Shown here: positions 24,246 to 54,719 of the stretch, piece after piece
Numbering within the stretch: position 1 is the first letter of the stretch
How the letters are laid out: each line of letters starts with the position of its first letter
Source of the DNA: Bordetella parapertussis
GTDB taxonomy: Bacteria; Pseudomonadota; Gammaproteobacteria; Burkholderiales; SG8-39
NCBI GenBank assembly: GCA_945897475.1
Contig: CAMDFL010000001.1
Coordinates: 4,842 to 68,841, forward strand
Reading direction: 5' to 3'
Length of the DNA stretch: 64,000 nt
The notes under the pieces: generated by a model
Seen by the model: only the letters and a program-made list of their open reading frames with translations
The model's database searches: none
What the model was told of the DNA's origin: nothing
Position numbers and translations under genes: made by a program

Positions 24246-24265
24246 TTAGACCGCCCTGATACTTA
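24246..24265 (-). repeat. Single copy of the dispersed AGTATCAGAGCGGTCTAA-family repeat
   Basis: The + strand ttagaccgccctgatactta is the reverse complement of TAAGTATCAGGGCGGTCTAA. It lies in the hemA 5' leader/promoter. Confidence 0.7.
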
Positions 24266-24287
24266 TTAGTCCTAGTCATATTCAGCC

Positions 24288-25607
24288 ATGTCCATGCAGT
24301 TGTTCGCCCTCGGCATGAATCATCAATCCGCGCCGCTCGAATTGCGCGAGCGGGTGGTGTTCGCGGCCGAGCGTTTGCAGGTGGCGCTGGCCGAGTTGGT
24401 GAGAGCGAAGCCTGTAACCGAGGCGGCGATTATCTCCACCTGCAATCGCACCGAGATCTATGGCGCGTCGGGCGATCCTTCGCAGGCGCTGGATTGGATG
24501 GCGGACTACCACGGCGTGTCGACCGAGGAGTTGAAGCCCCATGTCTATGCTTTGCCGCAAGGCGAGGCGGTGAGGCATGCGTTTCGCGTCGCCTCGGGCC
24601 TGGATTCTATGGTGCTGGGTGAGCCGCAGATTCTGGGGCAGATGAAAGACGCGGTGCGCGCCGCGCATTCGGCCGGAACGCTTGGGACCACGCTGAATCG
24701 CCTGTTTCAGCAAAGTTTCTCTGTGGCCAAGGACGTCCGCAGCAACACCCGCATCGGCGCCAATGTGGTGTCGATGGCCGCCGCCGCAGTGAAGCTGTCA
24801 GCGCGGATTTTCGAAAGCCTCGCCGATCAAAAGGTTCTGTTTGTCGGCGCGGGTGAAATGATCGAGTTATGTGCAACGCATTTTTCCGCGCAACAACCGC
24901 GTGCGATGGCTTTCGCCAATCGCACCATGGAGCGCGGCGAATCGCTGGCGCAACGCTTCAATGCGCGCGCCTTGTTGCTGCGCGAGTTGCCCGAGGTGCT
25001 CGCAGACTATGACATCGTGGTGTCGTGTACCGCCTCATCCCTGCCCATCATCGGCAAAGGGATGATGGAGCGCGCCATACGCGCGCGCCGCCATCGTCCG
25101 GTATTCATGGTGGATCTGGCCGTTCCGCGCGATATCGAGCCCGAAGTGGGGACAATGGATGATGTGTTCTTGTATTGCATCGACGATTTGGCGGAATTGG
25201 TGCGAGATGGACTGGATGAGCGCCAGGGTGCGGTGGTTCAGGCCGAAGCGATCATCGAGACGCAGGTGGATTCGTTTCTGCATTGGATGCGTGGCCGCGA
25301 GCGCGTGCCATTGATCAAGCAATTGCGCGATTCGGGAGAACAAGCAAGGCGCGCGGAGCTGGATCGCGCTTTGAAGTCGCTTGCGCGTGGCGATGATCCC
25401 AAGGCGGTGGTGAGTGCGCTCTCCCATGGTCTCACCAATAAACTTCTGCACGCGCCCACGCAAGCATTGAATCAGGGCGATACCTGGAACGACGAATTGA
25501 GGCGCGCGGTCACGCGACTCTACAGATTGGAAGACAGTAATTTGCAACCCGGTGAGTCTAAAGATAGTGTTTCTAGGGACGCTCAATTGAGCGAGGGCGA
25601 CCGATGA
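24288..25607 (+). CDS. hemA: Glutamyl-tRNA reductase
   Basis: 439 aa with '[14 protein letters not shown]', '[10 protein letters not shown]' and 'VGAGEMIEL'. The stop overlaps the prfA start (ATGA). Confidence 0.95.
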
Positions 25608-26686
25608 AAGCGAGTATCGAGGCAAAACTCGATCAGCTTTCGAGGCGCTTGGATGAGCTTGGCGCCATCTTGAGTTCCGAAGGCATCACGCGCGACATGG
25701 ATCAATACCGGCGCTTGACCCGCGAACACTCCGAGCTTGATCCCATCGCCGAAATGTTCCGTCAATACCGCAAAACTCTTGGCGATTCAGCCGACGCCGA
25801 GGCGATGCTGGGCGACGCGGAAATGAAAAGCTATGCCGAAACAGAGATACGCTCGTGCAGGCAACATCTGGTGGAGCTGGAGGAGAATCTGCAGAAGCTG
25901 CTTCTCCCCAAGGACCCCAATGACGATAGAAATATTTTTCTGGAAATTCGTGCTGGTACCGGCGGAGACGAGTCGGGTTTGTTCGCCGGGGATTTGTTCC
26001 GTATGTACGCAAGATTCGCCGAGCGCAATCGCTGGCAGGTGGAAATCGTCTCGGAAAATCAAGGGGAGGTCGGCGGATATAAGGAGGTGATCGCGCGAAT
26101 CAGTGGCCAGGGCGCGTATTCAAAATTGAAATTCGAATCTGGCGGACATCGCGTGCAGCGCGTACCCGACACCGAAACGCAGGGGCGTATTCACACATCG
26201 GCGTGCACCGTTGCGGTGATGCCCGAGGCCGATGAACTGGCCGAGGTGGTATTGAACCCCGCCGATCTCAAAATCGACACATTTCGCGCCTCTGGCGCGG
26301 GCGGGCAGCACATCAACAAAACCGATTCGGCGATCCGTATCACCCACCTGCCCAGCGGCATCGTGGTGGAATGCCAGGACGATCGCTCGCAGCACCGCAA
26401 CCGTGCGCGCGCCATGGCCGTGCTGGCGGCGCGTATCAAGGACGTGCAAACGCGCGCGCAGCAGGCCAAGGAAGCCGCGACTCGCAAGTCGCTGATCGGT
26501 TCGGGGGATCGCTCGGAGCGCATCCGTACCTACAATTTTCCGCAGGGTCGAGTCTCTGACCATCGCATCAATCTCACGCTCTACAAAATCGCCGACATCA
26601 TGGATGGCGATCTGAGCGAGTTGACCGGCGCCCTGGTGGCCGAACATCAGGCCGAGCAACTGGCGCAACTGGCCGAAGTCGTTTGA
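25604..26686 (+). CDS. prfA: Peptide chain release factor 1
   Basis: 360 aa with '[23 protein letters not shown]' (GGQ motif) in the conserved hemA-prfA-prmC context. Confidence 0.95.
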
Positions 26687-26693
26687 GGGCGGC

Positions 26694-27551
26694 GTGGCAA
26701 GCCTTGCCGCGATTCTCAAAACAAGCGGCCTGGACCGGCTCGAGGCGCGCGTGCTCGCCGCGCATGCGCTGGGCGTCGAGCGTGTCTGGATCAGCGCGCA
26801 CGAGAACGAGGAAATAAATGACCGCGCCGCTGCACAAATTCAGGCACTGCATCAGCGCCGCAGCGCCGGCGAGCCGGTGGCCTATCTCACCGGCGAGCGC
26901 GAGTTCTATGGGCTGTCGTTCTCGGTGTCACCCGCGGTTTTGATTCCTCGACCCGAAACCGAACTATTGGTCGATTGCGCGCTGCCTCTCCTGCGCGAGG
27001 GCTCACGGGTGTTGGATCTGGGTACCGGCAGCGGCGCAATTGCCATTGCTATTGCACATCATTACCCTGCCGCCGAAGTCATCGCCTGCGATGCCTCTGC
27101 TGGGGCTTTGGAGATGGCACGCGCCAATGCCAGGCGCCACGGTGCTGAAGTGAGATTCATGAAAAGCGACTGGTTCTCGGCATTGCAAGGCGAGCGATTC
27201 GATATGGTGGTCTCCAATCCGCCCTACATCGCACTGGGTGATCCGCATTTAACGCAGGGTGATCTGCGTTTTGAACCTTGTGAGGCCTTGGTGGCGGGAG
27301 TCGAGGGTGTGGAGTGCATCGAAGCTATTTCTGCGGCGGCGGTTGATTACCTGCTGCCCGGTGGCTGGCTTTTGCTGGAGCATGGGCATGATCAAGGCGA
27401 GGTTTGTGTTCGCATGTTGCAGCAACTCGGTTTTACGCAGATCTGCGACCATCGGGATCTGGCCGGGATTGCACGAACCGTGCAAGCGCGTTTTGGCACG
27501 ATTTGCGCAGGCACGGCAAGCCTATCCGACACAAGCGCATCCGTGGTTTGA
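26694..27551 (+). CDS. prmC: Release-factor glutamine N5-methyltransferase
   Basis: 285 aa with a GTG start, 'VLDLGTGSGAIAI' (SAM-binding) and 'VSNPPYI' (NPPY). Confidence 0.9.
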   Translation: MASLAAILKTSGLDRLEARVLAAHALGVERVWISAHENEEINDRAAAQIQALHQRRSAGEPVAYLTGEREFYGLSFSVSPAVLIPRPETELLVDCALPLLREGSRVLDLGTGSGAIAIAIAHHYPAAEVIACDASAGALEMARANARRHGAEVRFMKSDWFSALQGERFDMVVSNPPYIALGDPHLTQGDLRFEPCEALVAGVEGVECIEAISAAAVDYLLPGGWLLLEHGHDQGEVCVRMLQQLGFTQICDHRDLAGIARTVQARFGTICAGTASLSDTSASVV

Positions 27552-27639
27552 CCGATTGCCGTGCCAGCGTTAAAATCCCGACAAATTTAGTTGGGTATAA
27601 AGTTCTGTCATAAGATTAATTCGGCAATAGGTTCGGAAG

Positions 27640-27678
27640 TTAATTTCGAATTTAATTCCAAAGATAATTCGAAATTAA
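27640..27678. promoter_or_regulatory. Perfect 13-bp inverted repeat (candidate operator) upstream of grxD
   Basis: TTAATTTCGAATT (27640-27652) and AATTCGAAATTAA (27666-27678) are separated by a 13-nt spacer. The site is 29 nt upstream of the grxD ATG in a very AT-rich gap. Confidence 0.5.
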
Positions 27679-27706
27679 ATTCAAAATCAACCCCTTGGAG
27701 CATTCG

Positions 27707-28107: not shown

Positions 28108-29556
28108 TCAAACTTGGCGCAAAGCGCGGCGGGCAGCTGCGCGTACCTGTATTGGCGCGGTGCCGCCTGGGTGGCAGCGGGCGGCGACAGATCCTTGGAG
28201 GGTTAGCGCGCGCCGCACGTCGGTGCCGATCTTCGGGGAAAAACGCTGCAGCTCAGAGAGCGGCAATTCGCCCAGATCCAGCTTTTGCAATTCTGCGTGA
28301 CGCACCGCGCGTGCCACGATTTCATGGGCGTCGCGAAATGCCACACCTTTTTTTACCAGGTAATCGGCAAGGTCGGTGGCGGTGGCGTAGCCTTCGCGTG
28401 CCGCGGCTAGCATGCGCTCGGGATGAACACTGATGCCGGGCATCATCTCCGCGAATATGGCGAGCGTTTCCCGCAGAGTGTCGACGGCGTCGAACAGCGG
28501 TTCCTTGTCTTCCTGGTTGTCCTTGTTATAAGTGAGCGGTTGGCCCTTCATCAGCGTGAGCAGTGCCATGAGATCACCAAACACGCGCGCGCTCTTGCCA
28601 CGCGCCAGTTCCGGAACATCCGGATTTTTCTTTTGCGGCATCATCGACGAGCCGGTGCAATAGCGGTCGGGTAAGCCTACAAATCCGAACCGCGGGCTCA
28701 TCCACAGCACCAATTCTTCCGAAAGGCGCGACAGGTGCATCATGGAAATGGCGGCACAGGAACAGAATTCGATGGCGAAATCGCGGTCAGAGACCGCGTC
28801 GAGTGAATTGGCGCAGAAGCCATCGAAGCCCAGTTCGCGCGCTACTTGATCGCGACGTATCGGAAAGGTGGTGCCGGCCAGCGCACCCGCTCCCAGGGGC
28901 GACACATTCAGCCGTTTTCGACAATCGAGAAGGCGCAGCGTATCGCGTTCGAACATCTCGCCATAGGCCATCAAATGATGTCCAAACGTTACCGGCTGCG
29001 CAACCTGCATATGGGTGAATCCGGGCATGATGAGCGCGGCGTGCTCTAGCGCCAGGGTCGCCAGCGCGCGCCGCAGCGACTTCATCAGGACGACGATGCC
29101 ATCGAGCTCCCCGCGCAGCCACAGGCGCACGTCGGTGGCCACCTGATCATTGCGTGAGCGCGCGGTGTGTAATTTCTTACCCGCTTCGCCCACCAGGGCG
29201 GTGAGGCGACGCTCGATGTTCAAATGCACGTCTTCGTTATCCAGCGACCAGGGGAAGCTGCCGGTGTCGATCTCGTGTTGAATCGCTTTCATGCCACGCA
29301 CGATCGCCGCTAGGTCGCCCCGCGTGATGATGCCAGTGGTGGCGAGCATGCGCGCATGCGCGAGCGAACCGCGAATGTCGACCTGTGCCAGGCGCCGGTC
29401 GAAATCCACCGATGCGGTGTAACGCTTGACACGCTCGGCGACCGGTTCGGCGAAGCGTCCCGACCAGGCAGAGTTGCCGCCATGGGTCGAGCCCTTCTGC
29501 GCGCTCTTGGGCAATTTTTGGACTTTGTTCCTGGGGAACGGAGATTTTCTTGGCAT
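28108..29556 (-). CDS. argH: Argininosuccinate lyase (canonical)
   Basis: 'WSGRFAEP', '[11 protein letters not shown]', '[16 protein letters not shown]' and '[16 protein letters not shown]'. ATG 29556 is chosen as the start. The ORF extends to a GTG at 29616, which would clash with the divergent kinase gene. Confidence 0.9.
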
Positions 29557-29660
29557 AAAATGCAGTGGACTGTTTTTGTGATCGGATTTTGTCGCCCGTG
29601 TCTGAGTGCTTGGCACTCGGGCGAATTCATCAAAACGAACCGGCCCGTGCCATCACTTCA

Positions 29661-30689
29661 TTGAACGCAAGCAAGCCCATAAGTATAAGGCAAACGTTCG
29701 GCCCGCTCCCCGATTTTCGCAATCTGGGGGTGATGACGCGGGTGTTGCTGGCGGTCAATTTGGCTGGCCTGGTCACCGCGTTGCTGCGTAGCGCAGAACT
29801 GCGCGAAGTCGTCGATCAGTTCGCGCTGATTGCCACCACGCTGGAGCCGTCTTTACTGGCGGCTTTGGTGAGCCTGCATTTGCTGAGTCGCCTGTTGCGA
29901 AGACTGGGCTACCTCGCCGGCCTTGCCATGACCTTGATGCTGACAGCATCGATTGCCGCTGGGGTGAGCGCGGGCTTGGGGCAGTTGGGTCTGGGTCGGG
30001 CCGACGCAATGTGGAGCGCGGTCTACGCCCTGTTGCTGACGCTTGGATTGGCGGCGTACTTCTCGCTTTGGCAGCGAGCGTTTTCACCGGCATTGGCCGA
30101 GGCTCGGCTGCAGGCTTTGCAGGCGCGGATCAGACCCCATTTCCTGTTCAACAGCATCAACGCCGTGCTTTCCCTGATGCGCAGCGACCCGCGGCGCGCG
30201 GAAACCGCGCTGGAAGATATGGCCGACCTGTTTCGCAGCGTCATGCGCGATAACCGTGATCTGGTGACATTGGATGAGGAAGTCACCCTTACCCGGTGTT
30301 ATCTGGATCTGGAGAATTTACGTCTGGGCGACAGGCTGATTGTAGAATGGCATGTCGACCCATCGTGTGCATCCGCCATGCTGCCCTCCATGCTGCTGCA
30401 GCCGCTGGTGGAGAATGCCGTTTATCACGGCATCGAACCGGGCGCCGCGCCCGGAAAAATAGAGATCAACGTGCGTCGAGCCGGCGACCAGATGCAGCTT
30501 GAGTTATCCAATCCCTATTGGCCGGAGCATCAGCATCGTCAGGGCAATCGCATGGCGCTCGCCAATATCGGCGAGCGGCTGGCTTTGCACTTCGATGTCG
30601 AGGCTTCTCTGGAGACATCCATCCTGGATAATCGCTTTCGAATCCTGATTTCAGTTCCCTTCAGGGTCTCCGACGCACACAAGGCATGA
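29661..30689 (+). CDS. algZ: LytS/AlgZ(FimS)-type sensor histidine kinase
   Basis: Polytopic N-terminal half, then 'RIRPHFLFNSINAVLSLMR' (His_kinase PF06580-type H box) and 'LLQPLVENAVYHGIEP' (N box). The position between argH and a LytTR regulator upstream of hemC matches Pseudomonas algZ-algR synteny. The start is uncertain (TTG 29661, GTG 29565 or ATG 29733). Confidence 0.75.
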   Translation: MNASKPISIRQTFGPLPDFRNLGVMTRVLLAVNLAGLVTALLRSAELREVVDQFALIATTLEPSLLAALVSLHLLSRLLRRLGYLAGLAMTLMLTASIAAGVSAGLGQLGLGRADAMWSAVYALLLTLGLAAYFSLWQRAFSPALAEARLQALQARIRPHFLFNSINAVLSLMRSDPRRAETALEDMADLFRSVMRDNRDLVTLDEEVTLTRCYLDLENLRLGDRLIVEWHVDPSCASAMLPSMLLQPLVENAVYHGIEPGAAPGKIEINVRRAGDQMQLELSNPYWPEHQHRQGNRMALANIGERLALHFDVEASLETSILDNRFRILISVPFRVSDAHKA

Positions 30690-30699
30690 GTGCGCCGGC

Positions 30700-31518
30700 A
30701 TGAACGCCCATCCTGAACGCATCCATGAACCAACGCGTATGAACCCTGGCCTTCGAATTCTGCTGGTCGATGACGAGGCGCCCGCGCGCGCGCGCCTGCG
30801 CGAAGTGCTCGCCGATTGTTCGGCAGACACGCCCAATCAGGTTGTCGGCGAAGCCGCCAGCGGCGTTCAGGCGCTTGCCTTGCTTCCTGATTGCCGCGCC
30901 GAGCTGGCTCTGGTCGATATTCACATGCCGGGCATGAGCGGTATCGAGTTCGCGCGTCATCTGCAAGTGCTGGAGATGCCACCTGGGGTGATATTTGTCA
31001 CGGCGCACGATCAATACGCGGTGCAGGCGTTCGAACTCAATGCCATCGATTATTTGTTGAAACCGGTGCGCGCGGCGCGTCTGGCAGCGGCATTGGGAAA
31101 ATTCCGGGTAGGCAGCGGCCCGGAGCGCGAGTATTTGGAGCGCGTCGATCCGGGGCCGCGTCGCTATTTCAGTTCAGCAGAACGCGGGCGCGTCCATCTG
31201 ATCCCGGTGGAGGAGGTGTTGTTTCTCAAGGCCGAGTTGAAGTACGTTACCGTGCACACGCGCGAACGCGAGTTTCTGATCGAGGATTCGCTTGCCCAGA
31301 TTGAGCAGGAGTCCAAAGGCCGATTCATACGAGTGCATCGCAATTGCCTGGTTGCGGTAGATCGGATTCGTGGCGCCGAGTGCTTGCCCGCCGCGCCGGT
31401 TGACGAGGAAGGGGGGCAGGAGATCGGTCATTGGGCGTTGCGCCTGGATGGGTACGCCGAGCCGATCGCGGTGAGCCGGCGGCAGTGGGGCGCGGTCAAG
31501 TCGCTGGTGAAACGCTGA
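30700..31518 (+). CDS. algR: LytTR-family response regulator (AlgR-like)
   Basis: The receiver domain is 'ILLVDDEAPARARL...LVDIHMPGMSG...DYLLKP'. The C-terminal LytTR domain is 'VHLIPVEEVLFLKAELKYVTVHTREREFLIEDSLAQIE...FIRVHRNCLV'. An alternative start is ATG 30739. Confidence 0.85.
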   Translation: MNAHPERIHEPTRMNPGLRILLVDDEAPARARLREVLADCSADTPNQVVGEAASGVQALALLPDCRAELALVDIHMPGMSGIEFARHLQVLEMPPGVIFVTAHDQYAVQAFELNAIDYLLKPVRAARLAAALGKFRVGSGPEREYLERVDPGPRRYFSSAERGRVHLIPVEEVLFLKAELKYVTVHTREREFLIEDSLAQIEQESKGRFIRVHRNCLVAVDRIRGAECLPAAPVDEEGGQEIGHWALRLDGYAEPIAVSRRQWGAVKSLVKR

Positions 31519-31735
31519 TAGAACCGTGAGCCCCCAGACATGGGCAGGCGCGGTGAAATCTGCGCGACGGATGGCGCGCTATGCGTGCATGCTAATATCG
31601 TCGCACTCGCAAGCAGCCCGGACGTGTCTACACTGATGTGGATCTACAGATAGGCCAGAGGCGCCCATAAGGTGGCTTGCACATCACCGCAGACCACCCC
31701 ATTGCACAAAACCCCATCCTCATCCGGTCTCCAGC

Positions 31736-32653
31736 GTGAATACTGATCGTATCGTTATCGCATCTCGCGAAAGCCGTCTTGCCTTGTGGCAGGCCGAGCA
31801 CGTTCGGGACGCCTTGCTGCAGTTGTATCCTTCGCGCGCCATCGAAATTCTGGGGATGAGTACCCAAGGCGACCGAATTCTTGATGTGAGTCTGTCGGCA
31901 ATCGGCGGCAAGGGCCTGTTCGTCAAGGAGCTTGAAGTCGCCATGATCGAGGGCCGCGCGGATTTCGCGGTGCATTCGGCTAAAGATGTGCCTATGGTGT
32001 TGCCGCCGGGATTTCACATCGCGGCCACGCTCAAGCGCGAAGACCCGCGCGATTGCTGGGTGTCCACGCGATATCGTAATTTCGATCTTCTGCCGCACGG
32101 TGCGCGCGTGGGTAGTTCTAGCCTGCGTCGCGAGGCGCAAATACGTGAACGACTGGCGCATATCGATGTAGTGCCGGTGCGCGGCAATCTGGATACACGG
32201 CTCGCCAAGCTCGATCGTGGCGAATATGACGCGCTGATATTGGCCGCGGCCGGGTTGAAGCGTTTGGGTTTGGGGGGGCGGATTGCCGGTTTTATCGACA
32301 CCGAGCACAGCCTTCCAGCGCCGGGTCAGGGGGCATTGATGATCGAATGCCGGGAGGATCGCAGCGATCTCATTGGGCTGTTGGCGCGATTGAACGACAG
32401 CGATACCGATGTCTGCGTTCGCGCCGAACGCTGCGCGAGCCGCGCGCTTTCTGGGAGTTGCCAGTTGCCCCTTGCTGTCTTCGGTGAAATAGAGGCGGGC
32501 CAGTTGCGTTTGCGTGGATTGGTCGCCACGCAGGACGGCCGCACCGTATTGCGTGCTGAGCTCCGCGGCAATCCCGAGGATGCGGACCGCCTGGGTGAGC
32601 GCTTGGCCGCGCAATTGCGCGAATCCGGCGCCGACCGCATTCTCGTTCGCTGA
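31736..32653 (+). CDS. hemC: Porphobilinogen deaminase (hydroxymethylbilane synthase)
   Basis: 305 aa with a GTG start, '[16 protein letters not shown]', '[11 protein letters not shown]' and '[11 protein letters not shown]'. The cofactor Cys lies in '[10 protein letters not shown]'. Confidence 0.92.
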
Positions 32654-32659
32654 ATTCAG

Positions 32660-33445
32660 ATGGACGATCAGGGCATGGGCGAGAAATTGCGCGGCAATGC
32701 CATTCTGATTGTCAGGCCGGCGGGCCTGGGCGACGCCTTGGCTTCAATGATTCGCGCCGAGGGTGGCGAGCCCATCCTGCTTCCGGCGATTGTTATTCTC
32801 TCGGCGCCGCGCCCGGAGCGCCTGGCGACGCTGATTGCCAGGCTGCATACCTTCGAGTGGGCGATTTTCGTGAGCCCAAGCGCGGCACGCGAGGGCGCTA
32901 AGATCGTACGCGCGACACGCCACTGGCCACCCGGTGTGCGAATGGCTGCGGTTGGCCGCGGAACCGCCGACGCGCTTGCCGAGCTTGGTATGAAAGACGT
33001 TTTGGCGCCCGCCGCGCCTGGCGATAGCGACGCACTTGCCGCGCTACCTGAGTTGCAGGAGATGGCCGGCCAGAATGTGGTGATATTTCGCGGCGATGGC
33101 GGCCGCGAGCATCTCGGGCGCGTGCTCGCGCAACGCGGCGCGCGCGTGGAATACGCCGAATGCTACCGGCGGGCGCGGCCCGCGGTCGATATGTCAGGCT
33201 TGTTGGCGCGTTTGCACGCCGGCAGGGTGCAGGCCATTTGCGCGGCCAGCGGCGAAGCATTGCGTAACCTGCTTGAAATGTCAGGCGCCGAGCACCGGAG
33301 CCTGGCTCTGGCAATGCCGGTTTTCGTGCCGCATCCACGCGTGGCCGAAGCTGCCCGCGAGATGGGGTTCACCCAGGCCATCGTTGCCATCGGTGGCGAC
33401 CACGCAATCGCGGAAGGTTTGGCTGCATTTTTTGCTAAAGTGTGA
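32660..33445 (+). CDS. hemD: Uroporphyrinogen-III synthase
   Basis: 261 aa immediately after hemC, with HemD-like two-lobe repeats (ILIVRPAG...; VVIFRGDGGRE...). The call rests mainly on conserved synteny and overall pattern. Confidence 0.8.
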   Translation: MDDQGMGEKLRGNAILIVRPAGLGDALASMIRAEGGEPILLPAIVILSAPRPERLATLIARLHTFEWAIFVSPSAAREGAKIVRATRHWPPGVRMAAVGRGTADALAELGMKDVLAPAAPGDSDALAALPELQEMAGQNVVIFRGDGGREHLGRVLAQRGARVEYAECYRRARPAVDMSGLLARLHAGRVQAICAASGEALRNLLEMSGAEHRSLALAMPVFVPHPRVAEAAREMGFTQAIVAIGGDHAIAEGLAAFFAKV

Positions 33446-33502
33446 GAGGTCCATGAATAAGTATCAATCCCGGCTCATCCATCAACGCACTGCTGTGAGC
33501 GC

Positions 33503-34537
33503 TTGCCCGTGAACGACGCGGAGAATCGTGCCGAATTCAGCGTTGCCGGTAGCACCGCCCATCTGCCTAGATGGGTTCCTGGCGTGGCCGTGTTGCTGGC
33601 TGCGGCGCTGGCGTGGATGTGGATCGATACGCGCGGCGATGTGCAGGCCTTGCGCGGTGAGTTGGCCGGCAAGCTTCGCGAAACCGATTCGGACAGCCGC
33701 GACGCGCGTGCCGCCGCGCGCCAGGCGCAGGAGTCGGTGCGCGACGCGCAAGTACGAATTGTGCAACTGGAATCGCGTCTGGCCGAATCGCAAAACCAGC
33801 AATTGGCGCTGGAATCGCTCTATCAGGATTTGTCCCGAGGACGCGATGAATGGGTGCTGGCCGAAGTGGAGCAAATCCTCGCCATCGCCTCGCAACAGTT
33901 GCAACTCGCCGGCAACGTGCAAGCCGCACTGGTTGCATTGCAGACCGCGGATGCGCGCCTGGCGGGTTCCGAACGGCCGCAACTGATTTCTGTTCGCAAG
34001 GCCTTGGCACAGGACATCGAGCGGCTCAAGTCAGCGCCCAATGTGGATGTGGTGGGCCTTGCGCTCAAGATCGATTATGTGATCGCGGCGATAGAGGGTC
34101 TGCCTTTGTCCGCTGATGAGCGGGCGGTGGCGCCGCGCGACAGTGAACCTCTCGAGCAAGGGTTCTGGGCTCGCCTTGGAACCGGCATTTGGGATGAGTT
34201 GAGACAATTGGTGCGGGTGCGCAACATCGAGCAAGCAGAGGCGCCCCTGCTCTCGCCCACGCAGTCCTATTTTCTGAAACACAACCTGCAATTGCGATTA
34301 TTGAACGCGCGCCTAGCATTGCTCAATCGCAATGAGCCGGTGTTGCGCGCCGACCTTGCGGCCGCCAACGCCTGGTTGACGCGATATTTCGATATGCGCT
34401 CAAAGTCGGTTATCGCCGCGGGTGCGACGCTCAAACAAGTATCGGCCAGCGCTATCAGCATCGAACCACCTAGTGTCGCCGAAAGCCTTGCTGCGGTTCA
34501 CAGCTTTAAGACCGCCCGCGACAAATCGACACGATGA
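33503..34537 (+). CDS. hemX: HemX-like membrane protein (so-called uroporphyrinogen-III C-methyltransferase family)
   Basis: One N-terminal TM segment (VPGVAVLLAAALAWMWI) is followed by a long coiled-coil and the 'LRLLNARLALL' region typical of HemX. The TTG start is uncertain. Confidence 0.75.
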   Translation: MPVNDAENRAEFSVAGSTAHLPRWVPGVAVLLAAALAWMWIDTRGDVQALRGELAGKLRETDSDSRDARAAARQAQESVRDAQVRIVQLESRLAESQNQQLALESLYQDLSRGRDEWVLAEVEQILAIASQQLQLAGNVQAALVALQTADARLAGSERPQLISVRKALAQDIERLKSAPNVDVVGLALKIDYVIAAIEGLPLSADERAVAPRDSEPLEQGFWARLGTGIWDELRQLVRVRNIEQAEAPLLSPTQSYFLKHNLQLRLLNARLALLNRNEPVLRADLAAANAWLTRYFDMRSKSVIAAGATLKQVSASAISIEPPSVAESLAAVHSFKTARDKSTR

Positions 34538-34568
34538 GCGGCGCCGCGACAACGCCCGGAGCCGTGCC

Positions 34569-35744
34569 ATGAGGGGATTGCTGTGGGTGATCGGCGCATT
34601 TGCGGCGGCGGTGGCCTTGTCGCTAGCTTTGCAGGATGACGGCTATGTCCTCATCACCCTGCCGCCATGGCGTATCGAAATCTCCTTGCTATTCGCGATA
34701 CTGGTGCTGGTGGGTGGATTCCTAGCCGGGTATTTTCTGGTGCGGGTGGCATCTAATACTCTTAACTTACCCGCTCACGTGCGCGCCTTCCGGCTGCGTC
34801 AACGCGAAACGCGGGCGCGACTGGCCCTGGTGGATGCGATGCAAGCGCTCCTGGAGGGGCGTTACGCGCGCGTCGATAAGCTTTCCGGTGAAGCCTGGGA
34901 GAACGGTGCGTCGCCTGCCTTGGCGAGCCTGATCGGCGCAAGAGCAGCGCAACGCCGGCGCGACTTCAAACGGCGCGATGAGTGGTTGGAGCGTGCGCGC
35001 GCCGCCGAACCCGAATGGCGCAACGCGCGTCTCGCCGTTACTGCCGAACTGCTTGCCGAAGAGCACCGCTTCGACGAAGCAAAAAATCTCATCGTCGAAT
35101 TGCACGCCGGCGGATTGCGCCATTTGTCCAGCCAGCAATTGCTGTTGCGCTGCGAGCAGGCATTGGGCAATTGGGAGGAGGTGGTGCGCCTCGCGCAGCA
35201 ACTGGCCAAGCGCGGTGCGTTGACGCCCGATGCGCTGCAGAGCATGGCCAGTGGCGCCCACATCGCGCAACTCGAGCGCCTGTCGCAGGATTCTTCGCGC
35301 CTTGGTGAGTTCTGGCGGAAATTGCCGCGCGAGCAGCGCGTGCACGCGAGAACCGCGACGGCCGCGGCGCGCGCATTCATGCAGAGTGGCGATTGCGGCG
35401 CCGCTCACCGCCTGATTGAAGATGCCCTTGGGTCGGCCTGGGAGCCAGAGCTGGTGCGGCTCTACGGAGAATGCAAGGCCCCGGACAGCCTGCTTCGTAT
35501 CGAGCACGGCGAGCGCTGGTTGCTAAGCCATACGCGTGATGCGATGCTGTTGTCGGTGTTGGGGAGGTTATGCATGGAGCGGGAATTGTGGGGCAAGGCG
35601 CAAAGCTATCTGGAGGCAAGCCTTGCCATCGAAGTCACCCGCGCAACGCATATTGCGCTGGGGCGATTGTTCGACGCCACAAACAGGATTGACGAGGCCA
35701 ACCGGCATTACCGGGCGAGCGCGGATGTGGGGATTGCGGATTGA
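34569..35744 (+). CDS. hemY: HemY-like TPR membrane protein
   Basis: Start chosen at ATG 34569 (MRGLLWVIGAFAAAVALSLAL). It has two N-terminal TM segments, 'PPWRIEISL' and C-terminal TPR-like repeats, and it is last in the hemCDXY order. Confidence 0.8.
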   Translation: MRGLLWVIGAFAAAVALSLALQDDGYVLITLPPWRIEISLLFAILVLVGGFLAGYFLVRVASNTLNLPAHVRAFRLRQRETRARLALVDAMQALLEGRYARVDKLSGEAWENGASPALASLIGARAAQRRRDFKRRDEWLERARAAEPEWRNARLAVTAELLAEEHRFDEAKNLIVELHAGGLRHLSSQQLLLRCEQALGNWEEVVRLAQQLAKRGALTPDALQSMASGAHIAQLERLSQDSSRLGEFWRKLPREQRVHARTATAAARAFMQSGDCGAAHRLIEDALGSAWEPELVRLYGECKAPDSLLRIEHGERWLLSHTRDAMLLSVLGRLCMERELWGKAQSYLEASLAIEVTRATHIALGRLFDATNRIDEANRHYRASADVGIAD

Positions 35745-37425: not shown

Positions 37426-38703
37426 TCAACTATGCCGCGGGGCGAGCGCGCGATGCCCGATGTCGTGGCGGAACTGCATGCCTGGAAAGCGTATTTCATT
37501 GATCACCTGATAGGCGCGCCGCTGCGCCATCTTGATCGATTCACCCAGCGCAGTGACGCACAGCACGCGCCCACCGTCGGTGATGACTTTGCCCTCCTGT
37601 AACACGGTGCCCGCCTGGAATACGTGAAAATCCTCCTCCCCTGCGGGCAGCGTGGCGATGACATCGCCTTTACGTGGCGATTCGGGGTAGCCGTGCGCCG
37701 CCAGCACTACGCCCAGGGCCGCGCGTCTGTCCCACTCGACTTCAGTCGTATCCAACTTGCCTTCTACGGCGCACTCGAACAGTTCGAACAGGTCGCTTTT
37801 CAAGCGCAGCATGATGGGCTGGGTTTCCGGGTCGCCGAGGCGGCAATTGAATTCCAGAACCTTGAGGTCGCCCTTCGAATTGATCATCAGGCCGGCGTAG
37901 AGAAATCCGGAATAAGGCGTTCCCCTGGCGGCCATGCCGTTCATCACCGGTTGGATGACTTCGCGCATCACCCGCGAATGAATCTTGGGTGTGATTACCG
38001 GCGCCGGGGAGTAGGCCCCCATGCCGCCGGTATTGGGACCAAGGTCGCCATCAAGGAGTCGTTTGTGATCCTGGCTGGTGGCCAGCGTCAGAATGTTGCG
38101 GCCATCGCACATGACTATGAAGCTGGCTTCTTCGCCGTCCAGAAATTCCTCAATCACCACACGATTGCCGGCGCTGCCCATGGCATGGTCGATGAGCATC
38201 CAGTCAATGGCCTTATGGGCTTCGCTCAGATTGGACGCTACAACCACGCCTTTTCCCGAGGCCAGTCCGTCGGCTTTGATGACGATGGGCGCGCCCTTCG
38301 ATTCCACGTACGCGTGCGCCGCGGCTGCATCCGAGAAGGCCGCGTACTCCGCCGTGGGAATCCTGTGCTCGGCCATGAAGGTCTTTGCAAACTCCTTGGA
38401 CGCCTCGAGTTGCGCGCAGGCCTGCGATGGTCCGAAGATTCTAAGGCCTCTTGCCTGGAAGGCATCGACGATTCCCGCAGCGAGCGGTGCTTCGGGGCCG
38501 ACCACGGTCAGGTGTATCGGTTCGTTCGCCGCAAAATCCGCAAGCGCCGAGGCATCGGTGATGTCCAGGTTTTTGACGCCGGCCTCGGTGGCGCTGCCGG
38601 CATTGCCAGGGGCGACGAAGACGGTCTGCACACGCGGGCTTTGCGCGAGGCGCCACGCGATGGCGTGCTCGCGCCCACCAGCGCCTATGACCAGAAGTTT
38701 CAT
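37426..38703 (-). CDS. purD: Phosphoribosylamine--glycine ligase
   Basis: 425 aa with '[19 protein letters not shown]', '[14 protein letters not shown]' and '[12 protein letters not shown]'. The start abuts a 20-nt tandem array. Confidence 0.95.
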
Positions 38704-38803
38704 GGTGAGTGCAGAAGTTTCATAGTGAGTGCAGAAGTTTCATGGTGAGTGCAGAAGTTTCATGGTGAGTGCAGAGGTTTCATAGTGAGCGCAGAACTTT
38801 CAT
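38704..38803 (-). repeat. 5 x 20-nt tandem repeat abutting the purD start codon
   Basis: The minus-strand units are ATGAAAGTTCTGCGCTCACT, ATGAAACCTCTGCACTCACC, ATGAAACTTCTGCACTCACC, ATGAAACTTCTGCACTCACT and ATGAAACTTCTGCACTCACC. They are followed by the purD start, ATGAAACTTCTGGTC. Confidence 0.95.
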
Positions 38804-43053: not shown

Positions 43054-43061
43054 GGTGAAAT

Positions 43062-43103
43062 AAGTATCAGAGCAGTCTAATTAAGTATCAGAGCGGTCTA
43101 ATT
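43062..43103 (+). repeat. 2 x 21-nt tandem copy of the dispersed repeat family
   Basis: aagtatcagagcagtctaatt and aagtatcagagcggtctaatt, between the pepP stop (43125) and the ubiH start (43053). Confidence 0.9.
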
Positions 43104-43124: not shown

Positions 43125-44429
43125 TCAGGCAGCGCCTACCAGCGCCTCGATGTCCGCTACCGTCTTGGGCGTGGCCTGGGTCAGCACTTCATTGCCCGTT
43201 TCGGTGACCAGCACATCGTCTTCGATGCGCACGCCGATGTTCCAGAATTCGCGCGCTACTTTTTCGTCGGGGCGGATGTAGCAACCTGGCTCCACTGTGA
43301 GCACCATGCCGGGGCGCAGCTCACGCCATTCGCCGCCGCGCTTGTACTCGCCGGCATCGTGCACATCCAGCCCCAGCCAATGGCCGGTGCGATGCATGTA
43401 GAAGCGCTTGTAGTCTTCTTTTTCCAACACTTCCTGCAAGGACCCGGTACAAAGGCCCAGATCGATGAAGCCCTGGGCCAGCGTCTGAACTGCGGCATCA
43501 TGCGCGTCGTTCCAGCGGTGCTGGGGCGAGACCTTGGCAATCGCCGCGGCCTGTGCTTGGAGCACCAATTCATAGATTGCACGTTGCGGTGCAGAGAACT
43601 TCCCGGAGACCGGCCAGGTGCGGGTGATGTCGGAGGCATAGCCATCGAGTTCGCAACCTGCGTCCACCAGCAGCAAATCGCCCTCCATCATGGCGGCGTT
43701 GTTGTCGCGGTAATGCAGCACGCAGGCATTGGCGCCGCCGGCGACGATGGGCCAGTAAGCCGGAAACTGCGCGCCGCCGCGGCGAAATTCGTAGAGCAGT
43801 TCGGCCTCGATTTCGTATTCGTGCATACCCTGACGCGTGGCGCGCATGGCGCGGCGATGCCCGACATCGGAAATCGTTGCTGCCCGGCGCAGGGTATTGA
43901 TTTCGGCTTCGTCCTTGATCAGGCGCATTTCGTCCAATGCAAGCCGTAAGTCAATAATTGTCGATGGAGCGGTAATGCCGGCGCGGCTTTGCACCCGAAC
44001 CTGATTCAGCCATGTAATAACACGGGCGTCCCATGTGGCATCCGCGCCCGGCATGTAATGAATCGAGGCTTGATCGCCGAGAATCATCGGCATCATTTCA
44101 TCCAGCTTGGAAATTGAGTGGGCCTCATCGAACCCGAAGCGTTCGCGAGCGGCCTCCGGGCCAAAGCGGAACCCTTCCCACAACTCGCGCTCGATATTTT
44201 TGTCGCGGCAAAATAGGATGGACCTGGGCTCAGGCCCGGCAACCAGCACCAGCACCGCTTCGGGCTCCGGAAATCCCGCGAGATAATAAAAATAGCTGTC
44301 GTAGCGATACAGATAATCACTGTCGCGGTTGCGCAGCCGTTCAGGCGCCGTGGGGATGATCGCAACGCCGTGTTGCATGCGATCGCGAAGGGCGGCGCGA
44401 CGTCTTGCCTGGTCTGGAAATTCGCTCAT
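43125..44429 (-). CDS. pepP: Xaa-Pro aminopeptidase
   Basis: Start chosen at ATG 44429 (MSEFPDQARRRAAL). The canonical M24B metal ligands are present: 'LLLVDAGCELDGYASDITRT', 'HRTGHWLGLDVHD', 'LTVEPGCY' and 'GVRIEDDVLV'. Confidence 0.9.
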   Translation of the reverse strand: MSEFPDQARRRAALRDRMQHGVAIIPTAPERLRNRDSDYLYRYDSYFYYLAGFPEPEAVLVLVAGPEPRSILFCRDKNIERELWEGFRFGPEAARERFGFDEAHSISKLDEMMPMILGDQASIHYMPGADATWDARVITWLNQVRVQSRAGITAPSTIIDLRLALDEMRLIKDEAEINTLRRAATISDVGHRRAMRATRQGMHEYEIEAELLYEFRRGGAQFPAYWPIVAGGANACVLHYRDNNAAMMEGDLLLVDAGCELDGYASDITRTWPVSGKFSAPQRAIYELVLQAQAAAIAKVSPQHRWNDAHDAAVQTLAQGFIDLGLCTGSLQEVLEKEDYKRFYMHRTGHWLGLDVHDAGEYKRGGEWRELRPGMVLTVEPGCYIRPDEKVAREFWNIGVRIEDDVLVTETGNEVLTQATPKTVADIEALVGAA

Positions 44430-44484
44430 GGACCGAAGTATAGCGCCACCCCTTAGAAGGCCGTCTGGTTTGAAATAGATTGAA

Positions 44485-45156
44485 CTAGACTTGCAATAGC
44501 CTTTGATCGAGCTCGGCCAGTCTTTGCGGCGTGCCGATGTCAAACCAGTGGCCTGTATGCAATTCGCCGCTCGCCTTGCCGGCGTCGGCGGCTTCGCGCA
44601 ACAGGGGGGCAAGTTTGTGCCGGCTGCCGGGTGCCAGTCCGGCGAAAAGACGCGGGTGGTACAGAGCGATCCCGGAAAACGTGTGGCGAGGCAAGCCGTC
44701 ATTTCGGAGCGCCGATTGGTCGAGTGCGAAATCGCCTTCGAGGTGATGCGGCGGATTTGGGACGAGCACCAGATGCGCTAAATTACCGGCAAGATCGCGC
44801 GAACAAATTTTTGCAAAATCCCAATCGCAATAAATGTCGCCGGCCACCGCGATAAAAGGCGCATCGCCGAGTAAATCAAGAGCATTCGCGATTCCCCCGG
44901 CGGTTTCCAAGGCTTCGCGTTCGGGAGAATAGCGGATGCGCACACCGTACCGATCGCCATCGCCCAAGGCGGACTCGATCTGCGCGCCCAGATGTGCGTG
45001 ATTGATCACGATCTCCCGGATGCCGCCATCGCGCAGGCGCTCCAGAGTCCAAACGATCAAGGGTTTGCCGCCTGCCTGCAACAGGGGCTTGGGCGTGACA
45101 TCGGACAGCGGGCGCATCCGTTCGCCATGCCCTGCGGCGAGGATCATTGCTTTCAT
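44485..45156 (-). CDS. murU: Nucleotidyltransferase, MurU-like (N-acetylmuramate-1-phosphate uridylyltransferase)
   Basis: 223 aa with 'MKAMILAAGHGERMRPLSDVTPKPLL'. It is paired with an AmgK-like kinase and divergent from lptD, as in the Pseudomonas amgK-murU locus. Confidence 0.75.
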   Translation of the reverse strand: MKAMILAAGHGERMRPLSDVTPKPLLQAGGKPLIVWTLERLRDGGIREIVINHAHLGAQIESALGDGDRYGVRIRYSPEREALETAGGIANALDLLGDAPFIAVAGDIYCDWDFAKICSRDLAGNLAHLVLVPNPPHHLEGDFALDQSALRNDGLPRHTFSGIALYHPRLFAGLAPGSRHKLAPLLREAADAGKASGELHTGHWFDIGTPQRLAELDQRLLQV

Positions 45157-50115: not shown

Positions 50116-50147
50116 CGCCATTTGGTTTTTTGGCGTCGTAGGTGCAA

Positions 50148-51949: not shown

Positions 51950-52028
51950 TCCATTCACATATGCTTTTGCCACTGGCACAATTCGATATTCCCGTCATGA
52001 CGGCTGTATCATGAAATGCCGCCGTAAT

Positions 52029-52128
52029 AGGTATCACAGCGGTCTAATAAGTGTCAGAGCGGTCTAATAAGTGCCAGAGGGGTCTAATTAGTATCAGAAG
52101 GGTCTAATAAGTATCAGACGGGTCTAAT
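52029..52128 (+). repeat. 5 x 20-nt tandem array of the dispersed repeat family
   Basis: ggtatcacagcggtctaata, agtgtcagagcggtctaata, agtgccagaggggtctaatt, agtatcagaagggtctaata and agtatcagacgggtctaatc, between rsmA and the 52198 ORF. Confidence 0.95.
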
Positions 52129-52197
52129 CGGCGTTGAAGAACTTCGGGGACGTTCCCCCGACATTGAATCTGTAATCCGCAAATTTGGAGACTGATT

Positions 52198-52860
52198 ATG
52201 GGCCTGCTCGATGATTTGAAAAAACAGGCGGAACTGGCTAAATCCCAACAGATATCGGAGAAATCGCTGCAGGCGGAGTCCTTGAAGGTGGTTGAGACAA
52301 AGGCCAAACAGACCTTTCAATACCTGAACGACCTATTGAAGCAGCTTGCGGTACTCAAGCCGGTCAATCCGCTCAATTTTTCCATTCCCAGCGTCACTGA
52401 ACTGAAGAATTTATCCTATCTGGACTCGTTTATCGATAGCCGCAAGAAGAGCGTCAGCGATATTGAGGTGATCGACACCATCAGTTTCTATATCAAGTGG
52501 GGCAGTGCCGCCAAAATCAACATCGAAAAGGACATGCCCGCGCCGGCGCAGAAAATTCGTGACGGACTGACCCAGAATGGCGTGAAATTCGCCGAAGATG
52601 AAATGCGCAGCCCACGGGGGACCATCGCAGGGTGGAAGTTTACTGTCGATCAGGCAATCAATACCGATGTGAAAATAACAGCCGACCACGCGAATTTACG
52701 GCTCATGATTGCAGGCAGAAATCTTATTCGACTGGGAAGTGACGATTTCGTGGTTCCGATCCTGGAGATCACTGAAGAATGGCTCGAGGAATTCGCCAAA
52801 TCCCTGTTGGGGCATCCCAGCGGGCTACAGAAGTACAAGGTCCAAACGCCGTTTCGCTAA
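52198..52860 (+). CDS. Hypothetical protein (N-terminal amphipathic/coiled-coil region, no recognised domain)
   Basis: 220-aa ORF with GGAG 7 nt upstream of the ATG and ordinary coding-like composition. It lies between two repeat arrays. Confidence 0.6.
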   Translation: MGLLDDLKKQAELAKSQQISEKSLQAESLKVVETKAKQTFQYLNDLLKQLAVLKPVNPLNFSIPSVTELKNLSYLDSFIDSRKKSVSDIEVIDTISFYIKWGSAAKINIEKDMPAPAQKIRDGLTQNGVKFAEDEMRSPRGTIAGWKFTVDQAINTDVKITADHANLRLMIAGRNLIRLGSDDFVVPILEITEEWLEEFAKSLLGHPSGLQKYKVQTPFR

Positions 52861-53000
52861 GCCGGACCCTATCTGGCGCTTGTGATGGGCCGGACCCTAT
52901 CCGGCGCTTGTGATGGTCCGGACCCTGTCCGATGCTTGTCATGGCCCGGACCCTGTCCGGTGCTTGTAATAAACCGGACCTTCTGCGGTGCAGCTGATCA
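52861..53000. repeat. About 5 x 28-nt tandem array, each unit containing a short hairpin
   Basis: The units are gccggaccctatctggcgcttgtgatgg, gccggaccctatccggcgcttgtgatgg, tccggaccctgtccgatgcttgtcatgg, cccggaccctgtccggtgcttgtaataa and a degenerate fifth. GCCGGA...TCCGGC forms a 6-bp stem in unit 2. The array fills the convergent gap 52861-53010. Confidence 0.9.
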
Positions 53001-53010
53001 TGCCTCTTGT

Positions 53011-53880
53011 TCAAAGTTCAGGCAGTTGCCTTCCCAATAAATTGAGTTCGCGACGCGCATCGCGACAATTGGGATAGACGCGGTCGAGGATCGACCAGAA
53101 GCGCGCTGAATGGTTCATCTCCAGCAGGTGCGCGATTTCATGGGCCACCACATAGTCAATTAGATGTGCGGGCATGTGTATCAGGCGCCAGTTAAGGCAA
53201 ACCCTGCCAGAGGCGCTGCAACTTCCCCAGCGCGTGCGTGCATTGGACAGGCGTACCGAGGGTGTTGGCACGCCGAGTCTCGCCGAATATAAATTGACGC
53301 GCTCAGTGCCGGTCAGAAGCATCTTTTCGCGCAACCACGTTTGTACCAGGCTGCGCAACTGTTCGAGGCCGTCGTCGTTGAGGATCCGCGCGACCAGTCT
53401 ATTTTCTTCCATGAGAACCGCTCGCTCTCTGGGTTCCGAGGCGACGCGCCTGATGTCCAGCGAGGCCGGCTGGCCAAACAAGGAAATGCTGTCTCCGTTG
53501 TTCCATTGGAATGCTTCTTTTTTGGAACAGCGGTCTTTCAGGTGCTGCCAAATCCATTTCTCTTTCTCGCGAAGAAATTTTTCGACTTCGCCCACGCCGA
53601 CCCAGCGAGGCGCGCGTACCTCAACGCCGCGGTCGCCGACCAGGATGCCGAGGGTGCGGCGGCGCGCTCGAATCAAGCGATAGCCAAGAACACCACCTTC
53701 GAGGGCGAGCTGTCGTTCTCCGGCGCTCCTCTGCGGCGTGTCGGCGAGTTGCGTGTTGCTTAGCTTCGTGTCGCCGAGTTGCGTGTTGCTTAGCTGCGTT
53801 TCGATTCGCGGCGGGTTAAGGCCAAGTCCCAAAGACAACTGAAACATTTGCAACTGAAACATTTGTTTCAAAAACTTCAT
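53011..53880 (-). CDS. M48/DUF45 (YgjP-like) zinc metallopeptidase-family protein
   Basis: 289 aa with 'YRLIRARRRTLGILV' (DUF45 N-region) and 'VVAHEIAHLLEMNHSARFW' (HExxH...H). The ATG overlaps the plsC stop (ATGA). The N-terminal ~55 aa contain in-frame tandem duplications. Confidence 0.8.
   Translation of the reverse strand: MKFLKQMFQLQMFQLSLGLGLNPPRIETQLSNTQLGDTKLSNTQLADTPQRSAGERQLALEGGVLGYRLIRARRRTLGILVGDRGVEVRAPRWVGVGEVEKFLREKEKWIWQHLKDRCSKKEAFQWNNGDSISLFGQPASLDIRRVASEPRERAVLMEENRLVARILNDDGLEQLRSLVQTWLREKMLLTGTERVNLYSARLGVPTPSVRLSNARTRWGSCSASGRVCLNWRLIHMPAHLIDYVVAHEIAHLLEMNHSARFWSILDRVYPNCRDARRELNLLGRQLPEL
53738..53797 (-). repeat. 2 x 30-nt in-frame tandem duplication inside the M48 gene
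   Basis: gtgtcggcgagttgcgtgttgcttagcttc and gtgtcgccgagttgcgtgttgcttagctgc encode QLSNTQLGDT and KLSNTQLADT. Confidence 0.9.
53836..53865 (-). repeat. 2 x 15-nt in-frame tandem duplication 13 nt after the M48 start codon
   Basis: caactgaaacatttg occurs twice and encodes QMFQL QMFQL. Confidence 0.9.
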
Positions 53881-54617
53881 GGGCCGGGGCGCAAGGCAAG
53901 CATTTCATTTTCAATCCAGAATTTGACCTTCTCGTTCAATAACTCCGGGCTGATGTCAGTGCTGGCTATAGGCTTGCCAATGACCACGCGAATGGTTCCA
54001 GGCCGTTTGGTGAAGGCATTGCGCCCCCAAAACATGCCGGCGTTGTGCGCCACTGGAATCACCGGCGCGCCGGTGCGAACCGCGAGCCAGGCACCGCCTA
54101 CCCTGTAAGTACCGCAGTCGCCTGGAGCAACGCGGGTGCCCTCAGGGAAAACAACGATCCAAAAGCCCTGCGTCAGCCGAGCGGCGCCCTGCGCGGCCAT
54201 TTGCCGCAGCGCGCGCACGCCGCGGCCGCGATCGATGGCGATGGGACTCATCAATGCCAGACCCCAGCCGAAGAAAGGAATCCAGAGCAACTCCTTCTTC
54301 AGTACATGCACCTGGGGTGGAAAAATCAGCTGGAAGGCCAGCGTTTCCCAGGCCGACTGGTGTTTGGAGAGAATAATCGCAGGATTGTCAGTGAGGTTTT
54401 CAAGCCCTTCGACCTGATAGCGCAACCCGAGCAAGCATCGAGCTAACCAGATAACGCAATGCGACCATCCTGAAATAATGCGCCAGCGCCTATGACGGGG
54501 CAATACCACGGTCATCAGCGCGACCGCCGAATAGGGTGGTGTCAACAGCAGCAGGGCGAGCGCAAACAAAAACGATCGCAGCAGGTTAGGTAATGCACTG
54601 TCGTTGTAGGTGCGCAA
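53877..54617 (-). CDS. plsC: 1-acyl-sn-glycerol-3-phosphate acyltransferase
   Basis: 246 aa with 'ILSKHQSAWETL' (H-x4-E variant of the HX4D box) and 'VVFPEGTRV'. The TTG start is uncertain. Confidence 0.85.
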   Translation of the reverse strand: MRTYNDSALPNLLRSFLFALALLLLTPPYSAVALMTVVLPRHRRWRIISGWSHCVIWLARCLLGLRYQVEGLENLTDNPAIILSKHQSAWETLAFQLIFPPQVHVLKKELLWIPFFGWGLALMSPIAIDRGRGVRALRQMAAQGAARLTQGFWIVVFPEGTRVAPGDCGTYRVGGAWLAVRTGAPVIPVAHNAGMFWGRNAFTKRPGTIRVVIGKPIASTDISPELLNEKVKFWIENEMLALRPGP

Positions 54618-54644
54618 TCGAATCTATCTAAATGCAGTGTGTTG

Positions 54645-54719
54645 GGCCGATCTGATACTTATGACCGCTCTGATACTTACAGACCGCTCTGATACTTACA
54701 GACCGCTTTGCTACCTATT
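54645..54719 (-). repeat. About 4 x 18-19-nt tandem array of the dispersed repeat family (inverted relative to 52029-52128)
   Basis: The + strand reads ggccgatctgatacttat, gaccgctctgatacttaca, gaccgctctgatacttaca and gaccgctttgctacctatt, the reverse complement of TGTAAGTATCAGAGCGGTC. It lies between the gmhB stop and the plsC start. Confidence 0.9.

Follow-up and report, generated by a model that had tools for sequence, protein, structure and literature searches.

Two groups of short bacterial repeats come closest to the element described here, the MIRU family of Mycobacterium tuberculosis and the SDR families of Nostoc and its relatives. The SDRs, as Elhai and colleagues are said to have described them in 2008, are elements of 21-27 nt scattered through non-coding DNA within a narrow clade, and their recent mobility was reportedly deduced from filled and empty orthologous sites; several of the families reportedly share a conserved predicted hairpin, supported in SDR4-6 by compensatory changes in the secondary structure, and are said to sit within heptamer repeats, HIP1 or mini-transposons. 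By the accounts of Supply and colleagues from 1997 and 2000, MIRUs reportedly keep a fixed orientation to transcription and contain small open reading frames (ORFs) that overlap the neighboring genes. MIRU units are 46-101 bp long (PMC3914561) and occupy 41 loci, 12 of which are variable (PMC3914561; PMC3635867). Here, a 20-nt repeat is analyzed that occurs at four intergenic loci in a 64,000-nt stretch of DNA, referred to below as the window (contig CAMDFL010000001.1, positions 4,842 to 68,841), from an uncultured freshwater Burkholderiales lineage. An earlier reading of the letters of this stretch, the original prediction, had drawn attention to the repeat and proposed, as a speculation, that a DNA-binding protein recognizes the copies as arrayed binding sites or, alternatively, that they are a REP-like selfish or structural element. 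The repeat is probably a lineage-specific and very small dispersed element that was recently copied into at least four intergenic sites and that expands and contracts there as tandem arrays.

The element works like an interspersed variable-number tandem repeat family (MIRU) and like the very small mobile repeats (SDR), but is a member of neither, since it departs from them in the size and structure of the unit, in orientation rules and in taxon. In common with MIRUs, one unit family recurs at many intergenic or intercistronic loci, often in tandem, and only some of the loci vary between strains (three variable and one stable in the present case). By contrast, the units here are 18-21 nt long, lie in both orientations and have every frame closed, and the two families come from different phyla and show no sequence relationship. 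With SDRs, as reportedly described, the element shares a size of ~20-27 nt, the location in non-coding DNA, the narrow clade and the filled and empty orthologous sites; it differs in that its unit has no predicted structure, forms tandem arrays of its own and belongs to Burkholderiales rather than to cyanobacteria.

Results

The repeat unit and its four loci

The 20-nt unit reads AAGTATCAGAGCGGTCTAAT, or ATTAGACCGCTCTGATACTT on the opposite strand, and a solitary copy is ~1.2 units long, with the first 3-5 bases (ATTAG or ATTRG) recurring at the far end. A scan of the window with the 18-nt core GTATCAGAGCGGTCTAAT at up to three mismatches returned 10 matches, compared with 0.03 expected from shuffled sequence. 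When a 26-nt weight matrix trained on 41 distinct units, drawn both from the window and from related strains, was applied to the window, exactly 12 discrete copies were recovered at four loci, each with a score of at least 18.6 bits; the interval between 8 and 18 bits was empty, and shuffled sequences yielded approximately none. All 12 copies are intergenic and none lies in coding sequence. The loci, in the order in which they occur, are as follows.

24246-24269, minus strand: D, a single copy in the hemA leader, where the plus strand reads TTAG-ACCGCCCTGATACTTA-TTAG
43061-43102, plus strand: A, two head-to-tail 21-nt units in the spacer bounded by the stop of pepP (43125) and the start of ubiH (43053), two minus-strand genes
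52025-52128, plus strand: B, TAAT (52025-52028) followed by five units of 20 nt (52029-52128), in the 5' leader of ORF220 (52198-52860)
54641-54719, minus strand: C, four 18-19-nt units, of which the outermost is degenerate, in the spacer bounded by the stop of gmhB (54758) and the start of plsC (54617), two minus-strand genes

Tandem Repeats Finder placed the three arrays at 43061-43103 (period 21, 2 copies), 52025-52128 (period 20, 5.2 copies) and 54647-54707 (period 19, 3.3 copies). Much of the original prediction holds at this level. The four loci are present where it had placed them, the units of A, B and C abut without spacers, and the stop codons noted within the units extend to all six frames. 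The imperfect dyad AGAgCGgTCT is real though weak; it can be extended to ATTAGACC followed by GCTCTGAT, with symmetry at 6 of 8 positions. Both orientations relative to local transcription do occur: D in the hemA leader faces the same way as A in pepP-ubiH, and the opposite way is taken by B in the ORF220 leader and by C in gmhB-plsC.

Two details of the earlier description have to be amended. At D, a second TTAG (24266-24269) comes directly after the 20-nt insertion (24246-24265). Contrary to what had been stated, the copy does not overlap the conserved TATAAT (24234-24239) but starts 7 nt past it, at about the transcription start, and ends 18 nt short of the hemA ATG (24288). The pepP gene, previously given as 43125-44702, is called as 43125-44429 in the strain contigs.

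Array B lies downstream of a conserved promoter-like sequence, TTCACA-N17-CACAAT (51954-51982). This sequence and the leader end AAATTTGGAGA are kept upstream of ORF220 in every relative examined; the gene product is a conserved 220-residue protein that belongs to no Pfam family. Approximately 5 kb past the end of the window, the gap between rpe and apaG contains, in four strains, the sequence GAGTCAAAGCGGTCTAAC (L026 4894-4911), which agrees with the core at 14 of 18 positions. This may be a decayed fifth copy, with a borderline chance expectation of ~0.07.

Filled and empty sites

Comparison material was obtained by matching proteins of the window on NCBI and ENA metagenome contigs; the contig that holds the window is itself 71,982 bp long. 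Ten strain contigs span 42.2-62.9 kb of the window and are 98.97-99.84% identical to it outside the arrays; the hemA region is covered by six strain contigs, and further contigs extend 10 kb beyond the end of the window. Sister species are represented by L024 (RsmA 90%), L025 (RsmA 87%), L031 and L032 (HemA 88%), and by L030 and L033, which together represent the sister GCA_009693475.1 (HemA 91%, PepP 88%, ~86% DNA identity). L015, L016 and L017 are from more distant relatives.

No copy was found at up to 4-5 mismatches in L015-L017, L024, L025 or L030-L033. The orthologous sites of three of the four loci (D, A and B) were sampled in sister species, and the repeat was absent from each; A, B and C were likewise absent from the sampled orthologous spacers of the more distant relatives, the gmhB-plsC spacer having been sampled in two distant relatives only.

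At D, alignment with the sisters L030, L031 and L032 revealed a gap of exactly 20 columns, with TCAG as the empty site. The window reads CGCGGC-TTAG-ACCGCCCTGATACTTA-TTAG-TCC...ATG, as compared with CGCGAC-TCAG-TCT...ATG and CCGCCT-TCAG-TCA...ATG in the sisters; in each of the three species, 18 nt separate the site from the ATG, and the -10 element upstream is conserved. At A, the spacer of the sister L033 is 30 nt long and reads ...ATCGACG/ATTTCACC-ATG, without the repeat. The insertion in the window amounts to 41 nt (21 + 20, 43062-43102) and is situated at the ATT of the sister spacer; in more distant relatives, the pepP-ubiH spacer measures 10-31 nt. Array B is missing from the sisters L024, L025 and L033 and also from L015-L017. 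Its site in L024 is ..GCTGCAAT joined to CGCC, and a comparison across the junction, ...GCGCTGCAAT joined to CGCC in L024 versus ...GGGTCTAAT joined to CGGC in the window, sets CAAT of the sister against TAAT of the window.

In all three comparisons, the empty site already holds part of the ATTAG pentamer, namely TCAG, ATT and ATTG (CAAT on the plus strand). Given that all sampled outgroups are without copies, insertion in the lineage of the window is the parsimonious direction, although precise loss by slippage in place of gain is formally possible at any single site. One unit was gained, recently and precisely, at ATTAG-like sites.

Copy number among strains

Copy-number variation between strains was sought and was found at A, B and C among contigs that are 99.0-99.8% identical, with gene-to-gene distances shifting by whole units. 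Array A has 2-5 units in these strains, with inserts of 41, 62, 83 or 104 nt. The 4-8 units of B cover 84-164 nt when its leading TAAT is counted, and C has 1-5 units (segments of 25-110 nt between anchors). By contrast, D is one invariant copy, identical in 6 of 6 strain contigs. All four loci are occupied in every one of 10-11 strains, without presence/absence polymorphism.

The linker is specific to each array (A, TAATTAAG; B, TAATAAG; C, TCTGTAAG), as are the unit variants, which shows that the arrays were amplified in place and were not transferred ready-made. In the single-copy allele of C, TGGACCGCTCTGATACGTATGACCG, the sequence GACCG occurs twice, 18 nt apart, and microhomology at this spacing predicts the 18-nt first period of the expanded C alleles. 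The same alleles recur in independent assemblies (the window and L011; L006 and L009; L005 and L010), and this recurrence argues against an assembly artifact. Whole units have been gained and lost independently at each locus.

Copies in other genomes

An exact 18-mer scan of the GTDB representative genomes, a collection that evidently lacks the species of the window itself, yielded three copies in two metagenome-assembled genomes (MAGs), all of them solitary.

L003: solitary copy between the eno stop and ftsB, in MAG F1F2.bin.81
L002: solitary copy in the gap that separates a bug gene from a hypothetical gene, in MAG F1F2.bin.81
L001, 2913-2930: solitary copy that fills a 30-nt spacer between genes for an XRE-type helix-turn-helix protein and an AbiEii-like nucleotidyltransferase and abuts the GTG start of the latter, in the other MAG

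These copies are identical over 23-25 nt (ATTAGACCGCTCTGATACTTATTRG), beyond the 18-nt query, and read ATTAGACCGCTCTGATACTT-ATT(A/G)G. In the rsmA region of MAG F1F2.bin.81 (L017), no repeat is present at pepP-ubiH or rsmA-ORF220. Comparison with Rfam revealed no relevant match either at the gathering score or at an E-value of ≤1, and no match was obtained in the plasmid, phage and viral-contig collections searched or in a literature search on the unit sequence itself. The sole 18-mer match in JGI metagenomes (L014 579-596) was judged to be a chance occurrence; it lies in AT-rich, eukaryote-like sequence beside a tRNA-like segment (GGTTCGATTCCC).

Unrelated tandem arrays

Tandem arrays with a period of at least 12 nt number 12 in the 64-kb window, compared with 0-3 per 21 kb in relatives, and several unrelated arrays of ~20-30-nt units also vary between strains. 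This segment is unusually rich in such arrays, and the lineage seems generally prone to intergenic minisatellites of ~20 nt. The array-forming step is therefore common to the lineage as a whole, and the 20-nt family stands out by the dispersal of one unit.

An unrelated 20-nt array at 38692-38803 (5.6 copies) reiterates the start region of a minus-strand gene (37426-38703) that matches GARS/purD of L033. On the minus strand, its unit CACTCACCATGAAACTTCTG constitutes a 7-codon mini-ORF, the TGA of which overlaps the next ATG (ATGA); the sister counterpart comprises only ~2 degenerate units. Within hemA, a 21-nt stretch (25431-25451) is complementary to this unit at 19 of 21 positions, a match that probably reflects chance similarity between coding sequences. 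A 28-nt tandem repeat (52861-52991) directly follows the ORF220 stop and has 3 or 4 units depending on the strain. The 5' part of a YgjP-like gene (53011-53880, minus strand) contains an in-frame 15/30-nt repeat (53736-53803), and its product is 279, 289 or 294 residues long by strain. Upstream of miaB, a 20-nt array TTTCAACGCAATCATTGAAA is present in 2.8 copies in the window (63657-63712) and in 4.8 copies in another strain (L026 9860-9963). In the sister contig L033 (9153-9295), an unrelated 21-nt array AACCCACCATGAATGCTTAGA of 6.8 copies lies between genes for an APH-like kinase and an NTP-transferase and again spans a start codon.

Discussion

The observations can be accommodated by a two-step model, in which the dispersal itself and the pattern of array growth are shown and the mechanisms are proposed. 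In the first step, dispersal, one unit would be copied into an intergenic site bearing 3-4 bases of ATTAG, and a short flanking direct repeat would result. This could proceed by template switching at ATTAG microhomology from another copy or, alternatively, by way of a trans-acting enzyme or an RNA intermediate with an ATTAG-like target. In the second step, array growth, replication slippage or unequal exchange would act on the direct repeat 18-21 nt apart, which is the established behavior of minisatellites such as MIRU (PMC3635867, PMC3914561); each locus would consequently grow and shrink alone, by whole units. The period of an array would be set by its local junction, at 21, 20 or 18-19 nt, and the outcome would be variable-number arrays resembling MIRUs. 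For the host, longer leaders and intercistronic spacers with stops in six frames are most likely incidental; effects on the expression of hemA, ubiH, ORF220 and plsC through leader or spacer length are possible.

Several points weigh against the interpretation as a dispersed element that expands in place. At D, TTAG stands on either side of the insertion, as against TCAG at the sister site, and the insertion is therefore not a simple target duplication; with both flanking repeats resembling the element, microhomology-guided or fixed-target insertion fits better than random target-site duplication. Among the called genes of the ~74 kb available, no mobilizing gene was found, RAYT/Y1 transposases included. 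The identity of 23 nt across genomes in which housekeeping proteins diverge by 10-30% could mean functional constraint, for example that of a protein site, and a dyad with 6/8 symmetry is of the type used by dimeric DNA-binding proteins. Finally, four known loci and a possible fifth are a small sample, and the copy numbers come from short-read metagenome assemblies, in which arrays of the greatest length (144-164 nt) are longer than k = 141 and may be wrongly sized.

Among the alternatives, the one that survives best, though we consider it unlikely, is that a dedicated enzyme whose gene lies in another part of the genome, such as a transposase, integrase, reverse transcriptase or Y1/RAYT-like nuclease, recognizes the unit and an ATTAG-like target, which would make the repeat a non-autonomous transposable element of ~20 nt. 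The precision of the 20-nt insertion at D with its short flanking direct repeats, the resemblance of the target to the ATTAG end in 3 of 3 empty sites and the patchy distribution over related species are all consistent with such an enzyme. No gene of this kind is present in the 74 kb, however, and the unit has neither terminal inverted repeats nor a hairpin for a Y1 nuclease; moreover, the flanking repeats are element-like rather than copies of the target, and all four loci are fixed in the 10-11 strains. A bolder version, to which we would likewise give only an outside chance, holds that the repeat is an actively mobile 20-nt element, which would rank with the smallest known and would be the first such case beyond the cyanobacteria. 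A dedicated system (an RNA intermediate with a reverse transcriptase, a site-specific nuclease or a transposase) would copy it to ATTAG-like sites, and the arrays would act as fast-evolving length modulators of housekeeping leaders and spacers.

Distinctly less probable is the possibility, close to that favored originally, that the arrays are binding platforms for a sequence-specific protein (whether the neighboring AlgR-like LytTR regulator, one of the OmpR type or a helix-turn-helix dimer that uses the dyad), with copy number tuning the flanking genes. The head-to-tail direct repeats of A and B, spaced 20-21 bp or about two helical turns apart, do resemble the sites of LytTR regulators (AgrA, AlgR), the 20-bp tandem sites of OmpR-type regulators and iterons; the dyad, the 23 nt identical across genomes and the AlgZ/AlgR pair encoded at 29565-31518 in the window also speak for this reading. 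LytTR sites recur every 21-22 bp from start to start (9 bp plus a 12-13-bp spacer), and the periods here are 21 bp in A, 20 bp in B and 18-19 bp in C. However, helical phasing is lost at the period of C, there is no rep or origin context, and the genes flanking the copies are unrelated housekeeping genes (hemA, ubiH, plsC and ORF220, together with ftsB in MAG F1F2.bin.81). Substitutions per unit position are not significantly uneven, nor are they significantly concentrated outside the putative contact arms (p = 0.06-0.23). No constraint on the dyad arms is therefore claimed, and the proposal of purifying selection on them was dropped.

The AlgR-like regulator can be considered more specifically. 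Against the AlgR core CCGTTCGTC (PMC4064291), the best match in the unit scores 5/9 (CCGCTCTGA), a value reached by 80% of shuffled 9-mers. The GTT of the generic LytTR consensus, [TA][AC][CA]GTTN[AG][TG] (PMC4064291), is missing on both strands of the tandem consensus. Genes for His_kinase and LytTR proteins are present in the sisters L030 and L031, within an argH-algZ-algR-hemC(D) synteny that matches the window, and no copy occurs there in 21 kb that include the hemA leader. In the window, this region (28108-35744) comprises argH, the algZ-like His_kinase gene, the algR-like LytTR regulator gene at 30700-31518, hemC, hemD, hemX and hemY, with the synteny kept in sisters; the argH-to-hemY order is the same as that around algR in Pseudomonas. 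With the repeats absent from the sampled orthologous spacers of sister and distant relatives, including sisters that keep algZ-algR, and with copy number hypervariable among strains at least 99% identical, the assignment of the copies as ancestral regulatory sites or as AlgR sites is not supported.

Other functional assignments were considered and rejected. A promoter reading, with TCTAAT as a -10 element or with a sigma-E-like GTCTAA, finds no suitable -35 in any array register, and no promoter match occurs within the arrays. ORF220, which stands beside two arrays, was a candidate binding protein and has no informative Pfam match. Plasmid-type iterons are not indicated by the flanks, which are pepP/ubiH, rsmA/ORF220 and gmhB/plsC; the genes called in ~74 kb include neither Rep nor ParA/B nor any other plasmid gene, and there is no plasmid match. 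DNA uptake sequences (DUS/USS) occur at ~1 copy per kb, in thousands per genome and also within genes; here, there are four loci in ~74 kb, none in coding sequence. A CRISPR array can be dismissed in that the units abut directly and there are no unique spacers.

A family of extragenic palindromes of the REP/REPIN type is very improbable. The suggestion of a REP-like selfish or structural element was correct insofar as the repeat is dispersed, lineage-specific and recently inserted, and the short, intergenic copies in both orientations and the weak dyad are also in keeping with REP/REPIN sequences and their RAYT partners (PMC3116915). The structural hallmarks are nonetheless absent: a single unit folds at 0 kcal/mol without a hairpin, for five of the six array strands, folding does not surpass that of shuffled sequences (z from +0.9 to -1.4, with one C strand at -3.0), the multi-copy loci are all head to tail without inverted doublets, the conserved GTAG-plus-hairpin layout is lacking and no RAYT-type gene occurs in the 74 kb. 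Least probable of all is that the copy-number differences are an artifact of short-read assembly of tandem repeats: although every strain contig is a MEGAHIT k141 assembly and the longest B arrays exceed that k-mer, point variants between the units make an array assemblable, the same alleles were assembled from independent samples and arrays shorter than 141 nt (A, 41-104 nt; C segments, 25-110 nt) differ as well.

The finding reveals no new regulatory system. Its interest lies in the fact that dispersed repeats of well under 100 nt with clean filled and empty sites are rarely documented. Arrays A, B and C provide ready strain markers for this freshwater lineage and are likely break or mis-sizing points in short-read assemblies. 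Given an exact 20-nt insertion with defined junctions, three independent expansions in place and many natural strains, the family offers a tractable system for the dispersal of short sequences and for the birth of bacterial minisatellites.

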